Shown piece after piece: positions 56-55,421 of a stretch of DNA of 58,591 nt. A program made the position numbers and the translations under genes. Below the pieces are notes generated by a model that worked only from the letters and a program-made list of their open reading frames with translations, did no database searches and was not told where the DNA came from. The DNA is from a virus. Taxonomy: Duplodnaviria > Caudoviricetes. The stretch spans positions 1-58,591 of the IMG/VR virus record IMGVR_UViG_3300029624_000135. One strand, given 5' to 3'. Numbering within the stretch: position 1 is the first letter of the stretch; every line of letters begins with the position of its first letter.

Positions 56-140
56 GGAGGAATGGCAGAGTGGTCGAATGCGGCAGTCTTGAAAACTGTT
101 GAGGGTCACACCTCCGGGGGTTCGAATCCCTCTTCCTCCG
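56..140 (+). tRNA. tRNA-Ser(TGA), integration target
   Basis: GGAGGAA/TTCCTCC acceptor stem, anticodon loop CTTGAAA, long variable arm, GTTCGAATC T-loop, G discriminator. Confidence 0.95.
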
Positions 141-142
141 CT
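120..142 (+). repeat. att core, tRNA-proximal (GTTCGAATCCCTCTTCCTCCGCT)
   Basis: Identical copy at 53921-53943. Confidence 0.95.
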
Positions 143-27411: not shown

Positions 27412-27543
27412 TATAGTTAATAATTAATTTCTTTGGCCCTAGCTATCGGTTTGATCAGAACCGAAAGAACATTCATTGGTAAATTTTGTACTTCAACCTA
27501 TCAATGAATTCTCCTTTCACTAGGGCACTCTCTCTAATTGTTG

Positions 27544-27616
27544 TAGCGGGGGCAGGACTCGAACCTGCGACCTCCGGGACATGAACCCAGCGAGCTACCA
27601 ACTGCTCTACCCCACG
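27544..27616 (-). tRNA. Phage tRNA-Met(CAT), initiator-like with variant anticodon loop
   Basis: Cloverleaf; C1:U72 mismatch, GGG/CCC in anticodon stem, loop TTCATGT, no encoded CCA. Confidence 0.88.
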
Positions 27617-49719: not shown

Positions 49720-50021
49720 TTCTTTTGGATTTTTTGAAGAGTCAATGCTTTTACCACTTCTATTGTATTATCAATGGGCACGGCATAACCATCAAGGTTC
49801 CTCACTTTGAGGTTATCAATTGATATTGTGGTGATTCCTACACCGTTAAATACTTCTTCTGAATAGGTTAGGTCGAAAACCAGTAGGACAGGATGCCCTG
49901 TGCTCAATATTGATTCTGTTTCAACTCCTTTTAGGACCAAAAAACTTTCACCTTTGGTCAAATCGACCCAAATAGTTGGGATTTGTTCGATTTGTACCTG
50001 TAATAATTCCAAGGTTTCCAT
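49716..50021 (-). CDS. First gene of the early lytic operon, hypothetical
   Basis: Likely ATG at 50021, downstream of the promoter. Confidence 0.6.
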   Translation of the reverse strand: METLELLQVQIEQIPTIWVDLTKGESFLVLKGVETESILSTGHPVLLVFDLTYSEEVFNGVGITTISIDNLKVRNLDGYAVPIDNTIEVVKALTLQKIQKK

Positions 50022-50054
50022 ATATTTGGGCTTTCGTGTTATTGTTATACAACA

Positions 50055-50098
50055 CAAATATATATACTATGAAAGTATTGTGCAAGTATTTTGATAGT
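50055..50098 (-). promoter_or_regulatory. Early lytic promoter (TATATTTG) with AATACTT direct-repeat operator
   Basis: Divergent from the repressor; matches 29357-29400. Confidence 0.72.
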
Positions 50099-50135
50099 TT
50101 TACGGAATTATTTTTTAAGTAAATTCGATTCTAGT

Positions 50136-50603
50136 TTGGATACATTAGGATATAGACTTCAGAAATTGATTGATTCCAAGGGCATTACACCCTATGAGGT
50201 CAGTAAGGAAACAGGTGTTCCCGAATCTACATTGAGTAGAATTTTAACAAAAGGGTCCAAACCCAATAAAAAGAATCGCGATAAACTTGCTGATTACTTT
50301 CAAGTATCCCCGGAATACTTGCTAACGGGCTATGAGAGTATTTCCCTTATAAAGGACAACATTAAAATTGATGATAGCCTTTTTGACCGTAAAGAAGAAT
50401 TTAGGTCGATTGTGTTCTATATGAGCGAGAACATGGAAAAGTTGATGCAGGATGAAGTTTTCAAAATGTTTATTGATAGGATAAAATCAGAGGGAAGAGC
50501 CGAGTTAAGGGTAGAATTGGCCAAAGAATTTGATGCAGAAGCAGAAAAGGAAAAGTCAATAATAAAAAACAGCCTATCACAAGAGGAAAGCAATAGCAAA
50601 TAA
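50136..50603 (+). CDS. CI-like XRE HTH repressor lacking an S24 peptidase domain
   Basis: ITPYEVSKETGVPESTLSRI HTH, YLLTG; divergent from the lytic operon; start uncertain (TTG 50136 or 50091). Confidence 0.85.
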   Translation: MDTLGYRLQKLIDSKGITPYEVSKETGVPESTLSRILTKGSKPNKKNRDKLADYFQVSPEYLLTGYESISLIKDNIKIDDSLFDRKEEFRSIVFYMSENMEKLMQDEVFKMFIDRIKSEGRAELRVELAKEFDAEAEKEKSIIKNSLSQEESNSK

Positions 50604-50614
50604 CCAGACTCCAA

Positions 50615-50875
50615 CTAAGATATCCTCAGCAATCCTACTTCCAAAGCTTCGTTGTTGGTCAAATGATTACCTTCTTCCACCTTGTTTCTTATAGACCTTA
50701 CCTTAACATAATTATCTGTTGAATGTTTTAGCCTGACAACGCTCATTGATTCTTTTTCACGGGCATTTTCCAGAGACTCCTTTAAATCCCTAAGAGCTTT
50801 ATAATAAGAACTGTTCGACAGCCTTTGAAGATTGCTGTCGATATTACCTTTATTTTTTTTATTTTTACTGGACAT
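50615..50875 (-). CDS. Small basic cytoplasmic protein (cassette gene 3)
   Basis: Likely ATG at 50875, just after the membrane gene stop; 86 aa. Confidence 0.65.
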   Translation of the reverse strand: MSSKNKKNKGNIDSNLQRLSNSSYYKALRDLKESLENAREKESMSVVRLKHSTDNYVKVRSIRNKVEEGNHLTNNEALEVGLLRIS

Positions 50876-50882
50876 TTTAATT

Positions 50883-51641
50883 TTATTCAGCAATTTCCTC
50901 AGCCTTGTCATATAATCTGGTATCAAATTCTTTACTATCTTTTTTAACCTGCTCCTGGTATTCTTCATTGTAGAGGTCCTTTCCAATAGCGCGCTTCAAT
51001 TGCCTCATATAATGAACTTCCTTTATTTCAACAAAGAACTCTATTACGCTCTCACGTAGCTTTTTCAATTTCGAAACCTCATTGAACCATCCATTAACCA
51101 GTATCCTAGTTGCAATTGTTGATAGAACCGAAATGATTACAATGGACAGATAGTACATATACCTTGGGAAATCACCACCAGTCTTATATGCCCATATCGT
51201 CCAAACTATAAAGTAAAGGGCGGTAAACTCGAAAAATGTACCAGCGACCATAAATCCAGTCCTGAAATTTCGTTGAGTAATGTGCTTTGCAGAAAAAAGC
51301 AAGAACAGGGATGCAACGAACAATGATACTGGAAGTCCTACAGCGAACATAAACCTACGCTGGTTTGTAAAGCCCAAGAATTTATACTTCTCTTTGAGCT
51401 CAACCTTTTTGGCCCTATAATCGTCAACACTAATTGAACCGTTTTCAAAATCTACTTCCAACTGAAGCTTTTCAGGTGCAGTTTTAGGATAGATTATATG
51501 AACAAAAGGTGCTATGGCTCCAGCCGTAGCACCTAATATCAATAAAAATAAAATAAGTCTCTTCTTAACCGTTACCCCTATCGTCTGGATCCTCCACCTC
51601 GTCAGGGTCGACTGTTTGTAATTCTGGTTCTGATTCTCCAT
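50883..51641 (-). CDS. 4-TM membrane protein with extracytoplasmic loop and helical C-terminal tail (cassette gene 2)
   Basis: Four hydrophobic segments; start uncertain. Confidence 0.75.
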   Translation of the reverse strand: MENQNQNYKQSTLTRWRIQTIGVTVKKRLILFLLILGATAGAIAPFVHIIYPKTAPEKLQLEVDFENGSISVDDYRAKKVELKEKYKFLGFTNQRRFMFAVGLPVSLFVASLFLLFSAKHITQRNFRTGFMVAGTFFEFTALYFIVWTIWAYKTGGDFPRYMYYLSIVIISVLSTIATRILVNGWFNEVSKLKKLRESVIEFFVEIKEVHYMRQLKRAIGKDLYNEEYQEQVKKDSKEFDTRLYDKAEEIAE

Positions 51642-51741
51642 ATTGAATTATCTCTACTTGTTCATCTGTGGATTCCACTTCACAGGATTGAAAAACTACT
51701 GTTGCTACAATTAGCGCCAAAAGATAAACTAACTTTTTCAT
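51565..51741 (-). CDS. 58-aa acidic lipopeptide precursor (cassette gene 1; not in ORF track)
   Basis: MKKLVYLLALIVATVVFQS-CEVESTDEQVEIIQYGESEPELQTVDPDEVEDPDDRGNG; SPII lipobox; A-rich translation initiation region. Confidence 0.82.
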   Translation of the reverse strand: MKKLVYLLALIVATVVFQSCEVESTDEQVEIIQYGESEPELQTVDPDEVEDPDDRGNG

Positions 51742-51796
51742 GATTTTAAGATTAAATGGTTTATAAATGAACCTTAATCTACCTTAAAATCAGATG

Positions 51797-51828
51797 CTTG
51801 ATGAAAGACTTGCCAATCTTTTATCAAG
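51797..51828. promoter_or_regulatory. 12-bp inverted repeat upstream of the lipopeptide gene
   Basis: CTTGATGAAAGA-N8-TCTTTTATCAAG (11/12 match). Confidence 0.5.
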
Positions 51829-52019
51829 AAGTTTATGAACATTTGAGCGCACAAGATAATAGGATTATTTTAAATTCGCATTGAGTGAAAGCCATATAAA
51901 AACTATGGAAAAACCCCAATTGGTGGTGGTTGTCGAAAAAGCAGTACATATAGTCGATGGCTTAATGTTAAAATTTTACGAAAGAGAAAACCATCAATAT
52001 TTTTTTTGACATTTACTAC

Positions 52020-52544
52020 ATGAAAAAAATACTTTTTACCATCATTTTACTATCATTCAACCTTTTGTTTTCACAAGAACTAATAAAAACAACAACCGAT
52101 GAATTCACAGGTAGTATTGAAATATCGACTAGTTGGGAGGTTCTTTTCAGAAAAGGCATGACCCCAAGTGTCTGTAAATACCGTTTCAACAATGTCGATG
52201 GAAAACTGAGGCTCGAGGTTAGATTGGTTGTTAATGGAGGGGAAGTCTTCGCTGTGGATGAAACCATGGCCATTTCCTTTTTGATGGATAATAAAGAAGT
52301 TGTGGAATTTTATCCTAATGGTGTATTCATCGCTAAAAAAGGAGGTGCATCCGATGGTTTTATCGGGTCTAGTAGATGGGGTGCAACGATATATTACCAA
52401 CCATCATCTAACGAAGCATTTAATCTATTGTCAATAGGTACCGTGAAGAAAGTACGTCTCCATACCGACATTGGGTATGTTGAGGACAAATTGAAATCAA
52501 AAGAACAGGAAACTTTGTCCAGGAGCATTTCGCTTATTCTCTAA
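52020..52544 (+). CDS. Exported moron protein
   Basis: Sec signal ending LFSQ; located beside the integrase. Confidence 0.75.
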   Translation: MKKILFTIILLSFNLLFSQELIKTTTDEFTGSIEISTSWEVLFRKGMTPSVCKYRFNNVDGKLRLEVRLVVNGGEVFAVDETMAISFLMDNKEVVEFYPNGVFIAKKGGASDGFIGSSRWGATIYYQPSSNEAFNLLSIGTVKKVRLHTDIGYVEDKLKSKEQETLSRSISLIL

Positions 52545-53776
52545 CCCCAAACCTTTTTCATGCTTTCCTCAACGGTTCGCATGTTGGTTTTTTTGTACTT
52601 CATCAAGGTTTTTGGGTCCCGAATACCGGTAACCTTCATTATGATGTGGTCGGGCATTCCTTTTTCTGATGAAAGTGTAATAAATGTTCTTCTTGCTGTG
52701 TGGCTTCCCACCATCTGATACTTTTTGTAATAAAGAACCTTTTTTTGGTTTCCGCGGTAAACTGTCTCCTTCACCTTTTCCTTGATTCCTGCATCATGGC
52801 ATACTGTTTTTACATGCACATTAAACTTCTGTTCGCTGATTTTGGGAAGCTTCCATTCATACTTTTCCAACAATGCCAGTAACTTATTATGAAGGGGAAT
52901 AAAGCTCTCGTACTCGGTTTTTTCAGCTTTCTTAATGATCATATCACCAACAACATCTGCTTTCTCAAAAACCGAATAATCGGAAAAACGCTGGCCACTA
53001 TAAATACCGATAAGAAACAAGTCCCTTACCCTTTCTAAGGAATCACGCTTTGGTTCCAGTTCCTCCAGCATTCGAACCTCCGAAGCTGTTAAATGCACAT
53101 CCTCTGGTTGGTATTTCTTGACAGGGTTCTTAAGCTTGTCCATATTAAGGTTATGGTGCTTTCCCTGGGCCCAGTTCAAGAAGGTGAACAGGAAGTTGAT
53201 ATTACGATGTAGCGTGTTGTCGTTATGGGGCTTAAATGGCTTCTTTTTGATTTTCCTTAGAAATCCACAATACCTGTCAATCCAATCCTCATCTATATCA
53301 TCCAGACTGAATCCACCATTATGCCCAATGAAGTATTCAATTTTCAACTTTAGGTTGCTGTATTTTTGATTCCATGAGTACGACTGGCCACCAGAACGGT
53401 TCTTGGAGTCGATGAAATCTTGAATGGCATCCACTGGACCAAGTTTCTTCCTTTGGGATTTTGATTTGCCCTTGAAGTGTTTGTCAAATTCACTTTTAAG
53501 TAAATCCTTGGATAGCTTCAGTTCTCGAGTCTGCGAATCACGAATCAATGATTCAAGAAAATCGGCATACTTGGATAGGACCAGTCCGATATGTTTGTTC
53601 TGTTGTCCAGCCGAACCCCTCATGGCCAATGGCATCCTGTTCTCAAAACTCCAATGCTTAGGCGCAATCTTTTGACCGGTACTGTACTTAAAATACTTTT
53701 TCTCATCTTTGATGTAGTAAACCAAGATGATCAATGTCTCTTTTTCGAATTTCGGTTGTTTTAGAAAGAAGTACAT
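52541..53776 (-). CDS. int: Prophage tyrosine integrase
   Basis: SGQRFSD, HTARRTF and catalytic Y; N-terminal arm-binding domain; adjacent to att. Confidence 0.93.
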   Translation of the reverse strand: MYFFLKQPKFEKETLIILVYYIKDEKKYFKYSTGQKIAPKHWSFENRMPLAMRGSAGQQNKHIGLVLSKYADFLESLIRDSQTRELKLSKDLLKSEFDKHFKGKSKSQRKKLGPVDAIQDFIDSKNRSGGQSYSWNQKYSNLKLKIEYFIGHNGGFSLDDIDEDWIDRYCGFLRKIKKKPFKPHNDNTLHRNINFLFTFLNWAQGKHHNLNMDKLKNPVKKYQPEDVHLTASEVRMLEELEPKRDSLERVRDLFLIGIYSGQRFSDYSVFEKADVVGDMIIKKAEKTEYESFIPLHNKLLALLEKYEWKLPKISEQKFNVHVKTVCHDAGIKEKVKETVYRGNQKKVLYYKKYQMVGSHTARRTFITLSSEKGMPDHIIMKVTGIRDPKTLMKYKKTNMRTVEESMKKVWG

Positions 53777-53920: not shown

Positions 53921-53943
53921 GTTCGAATCCCTCTTCCTCCGCT
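53921..53943 (+). repeat. att core, integrase-proximal
   Basis: Identical to 120-142. Confidence 0.95.
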
Positions 53944-54182: not shown

Positions 54183-55421
54183 GTGCCACTTATGGTTTCT
54201 CTTCTATTCTATCTCAGGAAATATAAAAAAGATCGTGTTGGCCGGTCAACTATTTATGTCAGAATTACAATTGATGGCAAGCGTTCGGAATTCAGTACTG
54301 GACGCAAGATACACCCCAGTATATGGGACGCGGCGTATGGCAAAGCAATAGGTTTTTCCCAGGAAATAAGGCTATTGAATTCGTATTTAAGCAAAATACG
54401 CACTGACCTTTACCGACATGCGGAGATAGTGAGAGATCGAGATCAAACACTTACCGCGGTGTCACTTAAGGAGTCTTATTTGGGATTGGACAAGCCCAGT
54501 AAAATGCTTTTGGAGATATTTCAAGAACACAATGACAGAGTTAATGAACTGGTAGGAAAAGATTTCGCCCCCGGTACAGCAGAACGATACAGAACAGCAA
54601 AAAGTCATTTGGCCGAATATTTACAGATTGAACTTCGAAAGAAAGATATACCCGTTGTGGATGTGAATCATTCCTTTATTTCCGGTTTCGAATATTATCT
54701 AAAGACAAAAAGAAAGTGCAGCCATAACACGGCCATCAAATATGTGGTGAACTTTAAAAAGATTATTAGAATTGCCTATGCCAATGGTTGGATCAAAACT
54801 GACCCCTTTGCCAATTGGAAAGCACGATTGAAAACGGTCGAGCGGGAATTCCTGACTGATGAAGAGCTTCAACGACTGATGCACCATTCTTTTACTAATG
54901 AACGATTGGAGCATGTAAGGGATTGTTTTGTTTTCTGTTGCTTTACCGGATTAGCCTATGCTGATGTAAAAAAACTGACCCATGATGATTTTGTGATAGG
55001 GATTGACGGAGATCTTTGGATCAACACCAAACGGACCAAGACAAAAACAAAAAGTAACATTCCCGTTCTTCCAACAGCATTGATGATTCTCGAAAAGTAC
55101 GAGCACAGCCCTTTACTTGCAGACAAAAAGGTACTGCCTGTGTTGACCAATCAAAAGATGAATGCTTATTTAAAGGAAATAGCGGATCTAAGCGGAATCA
55201 ATAAACACCTGACCACTCATTTGGCCAGACATACTTTTGCGACCACCGTGACACTTTCCAATGGCGTCTCCATTGAGTCTGTAAGCAAGATGCTGGGGCA
55301 CAAATCACTCCGAACCACGCAACATTATGCAAAAATATTGAACCGAAAGGTCAGTGAAGATATGCAATTGTTAAAAAAGAAATTGAGCTTTCAAGAAAAG
55401 ATCAAGTCAAAAAACGCTTAA
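54183..55421 (+). CDS. int: Bacteroidota-type tyrosine integrase
   Basis: TGLAYAD, HLARHTFAT and LGHKSLRTTQHYAK motifs. Confidence 0.93.
   Translation: MPLMVSLLFYLRKYKKDRVGRSTIYVRITIDGKRSEFSTGRKIHPSIWDAAYGKAIGFSQEIRLLNSYLSKIRTDLYRHAEIVRDRDQTLTAVSLKESYLGLDKPSKMLLEIFQEHNDRVNELVGKDFAPGTAERYRTAKSHLAEYLQIELRKKDIPVVDVNHSFISGFEYYLKTKRKCSHNTAIKYVVNFKKIIRIAYANGWIKTDPFANWKARLKTVEREFLTDEELQRLMHHSFTNERLEHVRDCFVFCCFTGLAYADVKKLTHDDFVIGIDGDLWINTKRTKTKTKSNIPVLPTALMILEKYEHSPLLADKKVLPVLTNQKMNAYLKEIADLSGINKHLTTHLARHTFATTVTLSNGVSIESVSKMLGHKSLRTTQHYAKILNRKVSEDMQLLKKKLSFQEKIKSKNA

Follow-up and report, generated by a model that had tools for sequence, protein, structure and literature searches.

To our knowledge, the lysis-lysogeny decision of the temperate phages of Bacteroidota is largely unknown, and the repressors of these phages often lack an SOS-cleavable domain. 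This paper describes a three-gene cassette that encodes a small predicted lipopeptide, a four-transmembrane (4-TM) protein, and a small basic protein (gene 3), and that adjoins the convergent gene of a CI-like repressor in a virus record of 58,591 nucleotides (IMG/VR record IMGVR_UViG_3300029624_000135; this whole stretch is called the window here). In an earlier reading of this DNA (the original prediction) the cassette had been proposed as a Gram-negative analogue of the arbitrium switch of Bacillus phages, in which a displayed or shed peptide is sensed by a membrane receptor and relayed to the repressor. In the available text of a recent preprint (bioRxiv 10.1101/2025.11.23.689978), about 80% of arbitrium systems are described as carrying a short helix-turn-helix (HTH) gene without autocleavage domain directly downstream and in opposite orientation, the repressor AimC is followed by the cro-like AimL, and AimX is a small antirepressor that binds the repressor. 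According to the same text, close homologues of the arbitrium repressor are rare outside the system, and up to 21 receptor copies occur per strain.

Set beside the extended arbitrium module of Bacillus (AimR, AimP, AimX, AimC, and AimL) as it is presented in that text, the locus described here has the same layout, with a peptide, a receptor, and a small protein, an opposed short HTH gene, and a divergent cro-like gene; the likeness extends to a repressor that is rare outside the module and to many copies per genome (up to 21 there, 17 here). The short, non-autocleaving HTH gene, opposed and directly downstream, is present in the window and likewise at 33 of the 52 loci compared below. However, no relation in sequence or fold was found, and the likeness is one of layout, not of homology. 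The putative receptor is a 4-TM membrane protein, whereas AimR is a cytoplasmic tetratricopeptide repeat (TPR) protein, and no AimR-type TPR receptor was found among the three cassette proteins with Pfam, NCBIfam, or PHROG. Moreover, the peptide is a predicted lipoprotein, encoded in overlap with the receptor gene; the small protein is presumably made from the same transcript and probably translated along with the other two, whereas in arbitrium, as far as the text describes it, it is transcriptionally induced; and the hosts are Gram-negative, the cassette being known from sequence alone.

Several other described systems share single elements with the cassette. Ltp of the Streptococcus phage TP-J34, Llp of T5, and SieA of P22 are likewise small lipoproteins or inner-membrane proteins of (pro)phages, Ltp being presented in the accessible part of its description as a surface-exposed lipoprotein in superinfection exclusion; unlike these, to which no family match was obtained, the cassette combines three coupled genes, a peptide motif, linkage to one repressor family, and signalling fusions. 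In the RcsF/IgaA and NlpE/CpxA pairs, which are chromosomal stress systems of Proteobacteria, a lipoprotein that is a folded domain reports the envelope state to a polytopic inner-membrane protein controlling a transcription factor. The logic of a lipoprotein and an inner-membrane protein is similar, whereas the cassette has acidic peptides of 25-50 residues, and no homology is known. The SinR-SinI pair (PDB 1b0n) resembles the locus in having an XRE-type HTH protein whose helical C-terminal part is bound by a small helical antagonist. Finally, the Rz/Rz1 spanins of lysis cassettes also combine the gene for a small phage lipoprotein with an overlapping membrane-protein gene read in a different frame. 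There the lipoprotein gene is nested in the gene for a single-transmembrane protein or placed at its 3' end; the lipopeptide gene described here precedes the 4-TM gene and lies in the lysogeny region. A literature search on the cassette in prophages of Flavobacteriaceae or Tenacibaculum, which did not cover supplements, found nothing specific.

Judged from its recurrence across loci, the cassette is a genuine, conserved unit that lacks annotation and goes with one particular family of repressors. Loci were gathered via a related-locus search, a 401-genome sample of the bacterial family of one of the hits, and the paralogues in three genomes, and a profile built from 149 representatives was run over all of them. 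Loci that repeated a place already sampled (L001, L005, L010, L012, L013, and L015) were removed, as were loci with a SHOCT-like match only (L036 and L040 by Pfam; L037 and L041 by eye, as near-identical counterparts), and a kinase fusion (L125) was set apart, giving a final set of 52 loci with the window included. The SHOCT-only proteins had been pulled into the profile search by the loop after the first transmembrane segment (TM1); L036 and L040 match PF09851 (SHOCT) at E 6e-9 and 3e-7, and this family gave no match for the 4-TM protein or for eight gene-3 proteins.

A lipobox open reading frame (ORF) of approximately 43-77 codons lies directly upstream of the 4-TM gene in 50 of the 52 loci by a pattern test, the exceptions being L031, in which the same tail motif follows a signal peptide without the lipid-anchor Cys, and L132, in which no lipobox peptide ORF was found at this place. 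A small helical ORF of a loosely conserved family occupies the gene-3 position in 46 of the 52 loci. In 33 of the 52 the cassette adjoins a convergent HTH gene of one family, whose products begin with an XRE domain that a linker joins to a C-terminal helical domain bearing the motif I-A-x-Y-x3-N-E-x2-L-x5-F. Measured from the gene-3 stop, the HTH gene ends at -35 to +134 nt, so that the two genes often overlap, and in L003 the HTH gene stands 1.9 kb further along, beyond inserted genes. This linkage spans divergence to approximately 30% identity among the 4-TM proteins and approximately 20% among the HTH proteins. In four genomes with 17, 7, 5, and 3 copies of the 4-TM gene, 25 of the 32 copies have the HTH gene adjoining (a hand tally, with one pair, L134, from the locus screen), and of the 29 HTH matches that reach the C-terminal domain, 23 are within 1 kb of a 4-TM copy, one is at a contig end, and five stand alone. 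The proposed adjacency of an XRE repressor thus describes most, not all, of the loci. Taken together, the comparison of loci suggested with the original prediction turned out mostly in its favour, and we regard that prediction as supported in part. Moreover, a small cro-like gene was recognized by eye on the far side of the HTH gene in at least 10 of the 33 loci, and in the window the HTH gene is transcribed divergently from the early operon, the arrangement expected of a CI-type repressor gene.

The profile search of 1.84 billion representatives yielded 406 proteins at E <= 0.001, 192 clusters at <= 1e-10, and 38 at <= 1e-30. In the family-level sample 26 of the 401 genomes were matched, four of them only via the SHOCT-like stretch, which leaves 22 of 401, whereas a phylum-level sample of 401 genomes gave two matches, namely the query's own genome and one member of the family sample. 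On this sampling the 4-TM family is almost confined to one bacterial family, and the relatives come from, among others, Aquimarina, Croceitalea, Tenacibaculum, Kordia, and metagenome-assembled genomes (MAGs) of Flavobacteriaceae. A tblastn search of the 4-TM protein against 50,697 phage records gave no match to a cultured phage, a scan of viral contigs with the 4-TM alignment found no relative, and the Atlas comparison returned only nameless Bacteroidota clusters with scores of 0.80-0.83.

The lipopeptide gene was found at the coordinates and with the composition first claimed for it (Table 1). Its signal peptide, MKKLVYLLALIVATVVFQS followed by Cys, reads ...VVFQS-C20 at its end, and the mature part contains 15 acidic residues and one basic residue and ends in VDPDEVEDPDDRGNG. 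The basic and hydrophobic signal peptide, the lipobox, and the invariant Cys are those of a signal peptidase II substrate; NCBIfam gave a weak match through the signal peptide only, to the PG1828 lipoprotein (22.3 bits against a cut-off of 50). Nine aligned lipopeptide sequences share an invariant M1, C20, P52, D54, and R55 and the conserved tail motif [IV]D-x-[DE]E-V-x-[DE]P[DG]DR, and the E-V-E-D-P-D-D-R tail is kept despite third-position changes, with AGG, CGT, AGA, and CGA as Arg codons. The first relative found, a Bacteroidota MAG with 55% identity and the same four genes, has a 62-residue lipobox ORF with the end ...VDPLEVEDPDDRGNG. The pN/pS ratio (nonsynonymous over synonymous) was below 1 in all 14 pairs tested (for example dN 0.094 and dS 0.401 for L024/L025), these values being rough since dS is constrained by the overlap with the 4-TM frame. 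By these measures the lipopeptide is under purifying selection, and the short ORF is a genuine gene, more than a chance frame, with a predicted product. In two relatives the tail motif is duplicated internally, as IDPDEVEDPGDR and VDPLEVEDPDDR in L002 (5862-6050) and as two copies of YGIDKDKVVPPGEKGRQQ in L028.

Acidic residues after the lipidated Cys had been taken as a sign of surface export. In the available part of the published work the export signal of Bacteroidota lipoproteins is a polar or basic residue followed by two acidic ones at approximately +2 to +5 after the Cys, with forms such as C-X-K-(D/E)2-X, or SDDFE in Flavobacterium johnsoniae, and its position is critical (PMC5080379). 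The window lipopeptide reads C-E-V-E-S-T-D-E, so that the acidic residues are there, whereas the T-D-E triplet stands at +6 to +8 and the published signal is matched only loosely by the predicted protein; some relatives are nearer to it, for example C-T-D-D-T in L038.

The lipopeptide gene overlaps the 4-TM gene, and both follow each other as originally described. The stretch 51565-51641 is dual-coding, the GAN-rich codons of the acidic tail being read in +1 as the Lys/Arg/Thr-rich cytoplasmic N-terminus of the 4-TM protein, and relatives have the same dual coding at the same place. The peptide stop lies 28-82 nt inside the profile-aligned part of the 4-TM frame in 49 of 50 loci, and the offset between the two frames is likewise identical in 49 of 50. 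The 4-TM start is ambiguous between the ATG at 51641, which gives a 77-nt overlap with the peptide ORF, and the TTG near 51542 chosen by the gene caller (P0001); these, the latter within the first helix, are the only canonical in-frame starts, and the region homologous to relatives begins near 51599. In L007-L009 the 4-TM gene starts at a separate ATG that forms part of the peptide's P-D-D codons; the window has ACG at this point.

The 4-TM protein has hydrophobic segments at residues 29-47, 97-115, 131-149, and 164-182 of the 252-residue frame (Kyte-Doolittle), followed by a charged helical tail of 70 residues. Its alignment-based AlphaFold model is all-helical (predicted local distance difference test, pLDDT, 76.8), and Foldseek found no matching solved fold in PDB (best E 0.57). 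Pfam, NCBIfam, PHROGs, and PADLOC gave no match for the lipopeptide, the 4-TM protein, or gene 3 (PHROG, Pfam, and PADLOC at E <= 0.1 to 1), nor was there a sequence match of the cassette proteins to known exclusion or defence families (Ltp, Sie, Rex, and the PADLOC systems). Twelve residues are invariant (H26, P30, G68, F69, R73, F75, W125, T126, W128, D135, Y141, and Y142 of the 230-residue form), and the conserved motifs are APFxH-x-YPK after TM1, GF-x-N-x-R-x-F before TM2, and W-T-x-W...DFP..YY around the TM3-TM4 loop; the near-invariant residues stand at helix ends and would face the periplasm if the basic N-terminus is cytoplasmic (N-in topology). One member of the representative library, P0015 (475 residues), carries the entire 4-TM protein twice in tandem on a single chain.

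Co-variation of the peptide C-termini with the receptor loop had been put forward as a check, and tail types do match 4-TM types: P-x-D-R goes with N-x-R-x-F before TM2, S-P-G-D-K-D-G with R-H-K-F, and C-P-P-x-D-x-N-C with M-S-S-F. The tail type tracks the 4-TM type despite similar peptide N-termini in L090/L137 and in L027/L044 with L033 and L135, dN being 0.20 for the peptide and 0.72 for the 4-TM protein in the former pair and 0.20 and 0.85 in L027/L044. This match is confounded, however, because the tail is encoded inside the 4-TM overlap and linkage alone could explain it.

Gene 3 contains 17 basic and 11 acidic residues (net charge +6), and its stop is 11 bp from that of the convergent HTH_3 gene, as first reported. 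The repressor consists of the HTH_3 domain, a disordered linker, and a helical C-terminal domain, and translation may in fact begin at the TTG at 50136; pLDDT in the AlphaFold model is <50 over residues 1-13 and exceeds 90 in the HTH domain, with helices over residues 101-169. An S24 peptidase autocleavage domain was not found, Pfam giving only HTH families for the window repressor and 13 aligned relatives. The best Foldseek match of the model is SinR in the SinR/SinI complex (E 1.2e-3), HTH-driven and with a root-mean-square deviation of 10.8 A over 102 columns; the matches listed, which are mainly via the HTH, also include the repressor of an arbitrium phage in complex with AimX. The candidate by which gene 3 would mimic the C-terminal helices of the repressor as SinI mimics SinR was rejected at a hhalign probability of 0.2%.

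In rare relatives, as their domain order indicates, the 4-TM domain is the membrane or input part of a histidine kinase and of a LuxR-type regulator: HisKA_3 with HATPase_c was found in two of the 149 representatives (P0053 and P0061) and GerE in two, P0053 having the four helices with the family motifs and the kinase directly after them. The window 4-TM protein itself had no HisKA or HATPase_c domain in Pfam. Docking of the repressor (residues 14-170) on the 4-TM and gene-3 proteins was addressed by a three-chain fold in one run set with three controls. The score was 0.43 against 0.23 for the best control and 0.00 for both unrelated partners, the runs shared at least 69% of contacts, and the partner had pLDDT >=70. 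The fold mark is reached by 58 of 80 solved complexes and by 2 of 110 mismatches, and at <=0.60 by 7 of those 80 and by both mismatches. Docking of the repressor on the 4-TM and gene-3 proteins receives weak support from the predicted complex.

A hairpin precedes the lipopeptide gene (-11.3 kcal/mol, z = -3.0 against dinucleotide shuffles). By the same measure the 55 nt upstream of the peptide gene have a mean z of -1.97, with z < -2 in 22 of 50 loci as compared to 7 of 104 random windows of the same loci and 7 of 33 regions upstream of the HTH genes. In 34 of 50 loci no more than 12 nt separate the end of the 3' arm from the peptide start codon, and the stem sequences vary between loci. An Rfam scan of 50000-52600 gave no match, hairpin included. 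The element may act either as RNA, occluding initiation, or as a DNA palindrome. An AAGGT...ACCTT motif was discarded as a common upstream feature (15 of 50 loci, background 5.3%), the hairpin being shared and not the sequence, and so was the Bacteroidota -7 promoter motif, TAnnTTTG, which is mildly enriched (13 of 50 loci against 9% of random windows).

The window, which is the whole virus record, contains a siphovirus-type temperate phage, from a marine bacterium of the Bacteroidota, with a large terminase, portal, major head protein, tape measure, helicases, an Erf-like annealing protein, and a tyrosine integrase. Because a 23-bp direct repeat of the 3' end of the tRNA-Ser gene (56-141) occurs at both ends, at 120-142 and 53921-53943, the complete prophage is bounded at approximately 120-53943 (about 53.8 kb). 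The repeat places the integration site in tRNA-Ser, at the end of the prophage opposite to the integrase. The cassette is 2.2 kb from the right prophage end, in the minus-strand order of integrase, a 174-residue protein on the opposite strand, lipopeptide, 4-TM protein, gene 3, the repressor on the plus strand, and the early genes. Within the window, G+C is lowest in the segment 50001-52000, at 0.352 as compared to 0.374-0.456 elsewhere, and both the GC and the AT skew are nearly flat there. The 174-residue protein had no family match in Pfam, PHROGs, NCBIfam, or PADLOC, and differing secreted proteins occupy this spot in relatives, for example one of 204 residues in L001. The second integrase and the ORFs that continue beyond it may belong to a second element in tandem at the same tRNA site. 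Past the HTH gene of L134 and L135 (genome G406), small ORFs were seen by eye to begin like double-glycine leader peptides (...LSSVYGG...), which suggests bacteriocin-like cargo beside some modules.

Table 1. Positions in the window of the cassette genes, the repressor, and other features.
Feature	Position	Strand	Remarks
Lipopeptide precursor, 58 residues	51565..51741	-	Predicted signal peptide with lipobox FQS-C20; acidic mature part of 39 residues
4-TM inner-membrane protein (predicted), helical cytoplasmic tail	50883..51641	-	Open frame from ATG 51641
Gene 3, basic helical protein of 86 residues	50615..50875	-	Begins 7 nt past the 4-TM stop
XRE/CI-type repressor	50091..50603	+	Pfam HTH_3, E 1.3e-8; repressor PHROGs
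Hairpin, 5' untranslated region or operator-like palindrome	51742..51791	-	Ends one base before the lipopeptide start codon
174-residue protein, N-terminal signal-like sequence	52020-52544	+	Between integrase and cassette
Prophage tyrosine integrase	52541..53776	-	phrog_1, E 5e-22; 0.8 kb upstream of the cassette
Attachment (att) repeat	53921..53943	+	23-bp copy of the tRNA-Ser 3' end (window 120-142)
Second tyrosine integrase	54183-55421, ORFs continuing to 58591	+	phrog_1, E 1.5e-40; just beyond the prophage end
tRNA-Met	27543-27616	-	Inside the prophage, between packaging and replication regions

We tentatively favour the reading that the cassette is a membrane sensing module acting on the repressor, that is, the sensing arm of a four-gene module, with a tethered peptide that acts in cis. 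It builds on what the comparison of loci establishes, namely that the genes are real and conserved, that their layout is overlapping and coupled, that they co-occur with the repressor family, and that some signalling proteins contain the 4-TM domain. What we add by inference is every binding step, the direction in which the signal would run, and what the signal would be. The three genes would form an envelope-spanning complex, with the convergent CI-like repressor as the fourth member of the module. The lipid-anchored acidic peptide would be periplasmic and would bind through its conserved tail to the conserved surface that the 4-TM protein exposes to the periplasm; TM4 and the long cytoplasmic helix would relay the state of the contact to gene 3; and gene 3 would hold or release the helical C-terminal domain of the repressor, as a membrane-controlled antirepressor or tether, so that an envelope-derived signal could feed into the maintenance or loss of lysogeny. 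This reading is favoured because the peptide, the 4-TM protein, gene 3, and the HTH protein have stayed linked over the long term despite deep divergence, because the 4-TM and HTH genes co-occur reciprocally in the four genomes, because the 4-TM domain is fused to kinase and LuxR-type outputs, has invariant residues predicted to face the periplasm, and matches the peptide tail in type, and because a LuxR-type response regulator gene lies upstream of the trio in L126 and L130. Moreover, the repressor lacks a recognizable autocleavage domain, its model matches SinR of the SinR/SinI complex, and the geometry is arbitrium-like, to which the score of the three-chain fold may be added.

Several observations weigh against the favoured reading. 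The trio occurs without the HTH gene in 19 of the 52 loci, and five of these (L023-L025, L034, and L035) lie among housekeeping genes, between a START-like gene and hisS (names assigned by eye). In L126 and L130 (genome G405) a convergent integrase adjoins the trio downstream in place of the repressor. Synteny with a repressor would also be expected of a moron in a lysogeny module, and the low G+C of the cassette region fits such an origin. The intact kinase fusions P0053 and P0061 both come from one Tenacibaculum genome, with accessions six apart, and in L125 one stop splits the fusion, which no peptide gene precedes. As to the predicted complex, a score in the band obtained is more often wrong than right, and 0.23 of it was left after the 4-TM chain had been swapped out; hhalign, furthermore, found no profile similarity between gene 3 and the C-terminal domain of the repressor.

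Part of this evidence would suit superinfection exclusion or lysogenic conversion, in which the lipoprotein together with the membrane protein would keep incoming phages from adsorbing or their DNA from entering and the repressor is near only because this is the usual accessory site, a reading that we regard as possible, albeit unlikely. The available parts of the sources (PMC3952083, PMC10883804, and the T5 Llp preprint) report Ltp-type lipoproteins, along with further exclusion genes of temperate phages, between integrase and repressor, and the cassette sits between these same two genes, in the segment of lowest G+C; the trio occurs without a repressor too, and family searches found no regulatory domain in the three proteins of the window. 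However, the proteins have no similarity to exclusion or defence families of PHROG, PADLOC, or Pfam, and the linkage to one HTH family over deep divergence, with the HTH gene rarely alone, would be unusual for exchangeable accessory genes. Fusion of the 4-TM domain to kinase and LuxR-type outputs likewise argues against exclusion, as does the 4-Mb genome with 17 copies, only four of which lie within 2 kb of an integrase match.

Chromosomal copies among housekeeping genes, with neither HTH gene nor integrase, would be accommodated if the trio is a self-contained membrane module apart from the switch, such as an abortive-infection or addiction device or a system of membrane or lipoprotein homeostasis, the HTH protein being a mere neighbour or its own regulator. 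A catalytic or lipid-binding site could equally be made up of the His, Arg, Asp, Tyr, and Trp residues that are conserved at the membrane surface, and a multi-copy, patchy distribution is typical of defence or selfish modules. This explanation nevertheless appears quite unlikely, as PADLOC gave no match, the convergent orientation is atypical of a regulator and its target, and the HTH gene of the window is placed like that of a CI-type repressor, with the cro-like gene on its other side at the loci counted above.

Strict peptide communication, in which the lipopeptide would be shed or carried on vesicles, read in trans by the 4-TM protein, and report the density of lysogens or phages as in a Gram-negative arbitrium, seems to us very unlikely. 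It draws support from the parallel in architecture, together with tails that diversify among co-resident copies whose N-terminal parts are alike (G405 and G406), the motif without a lipid anchor in L031, and acidic residues after the Cys as in surface lipoproteins. Of the original proposal, display or shedding of the peptide and its sensing in trans found no support here, nor did an action of gene 3 on the repressor. The window sequence C-E-V-E-S-T-D-E lacks the polar or basic residue and the two acidic residues at +2 to +5 that are required according to the available part of the source (PMC5080379). Moreover, the peptide is predicted to be lipid-anchored in 50 of the 52 loci, a receptor site at the inner membrane would be out of reach unless the peptide is released and crosses the outer membrane, and overlapping, probably co-translated genes suit a partner in cis. 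We are accordingly very doubtful of a membrane-receptor counterpart of arbitrium in marine Flavobacteriaceae, in which the variable tail would be a private signal, shed or on vesicles, and the 4-TM protein would free an antirepressor; if true, phages and integrated elements would communicate by lipopeptides, over up to 17 parallel channels per cell.

That the short ORF is an alternative-frame artefact, or that a programmed +1 frameshift links its product to the 4-TM protein, is hardly credible, for although the frame offset is constant and the window has ACG near the junction where relatives have ATG and no canonical start there, the signal peptide, the lipobox, and most of the ORF lie upstream of the overlap with pN/pS below 1, and a fusion is contradicted both by the separate ATG of the 4-TM gene in L007-L009 and by topology, as it would put the basic 4-TM N-terminus in the periplasm, against the charge distribution.

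Returning to the membrane sensing module that we favour, its four genes make up a widespread and unannotated unit, with 192 clusters at E <= 1e-10, a presence in approximately 5% of the sampled species of one family, and up to 17 copies per genome, in which a conserved lipopeptide gene of 45-75 codons has been overlooked by gene callers and a predicted membrane complex is placed beside a repressor in an arbitrium-type layout. If the module excludes phages, it would represent a new three-part exclusion system. If its role is signalling, it would be the first case of a membrane receptor feeding into a phage switch in Gram-negatives, and its peptides would constitute a new family of small lipopeptide ligands.

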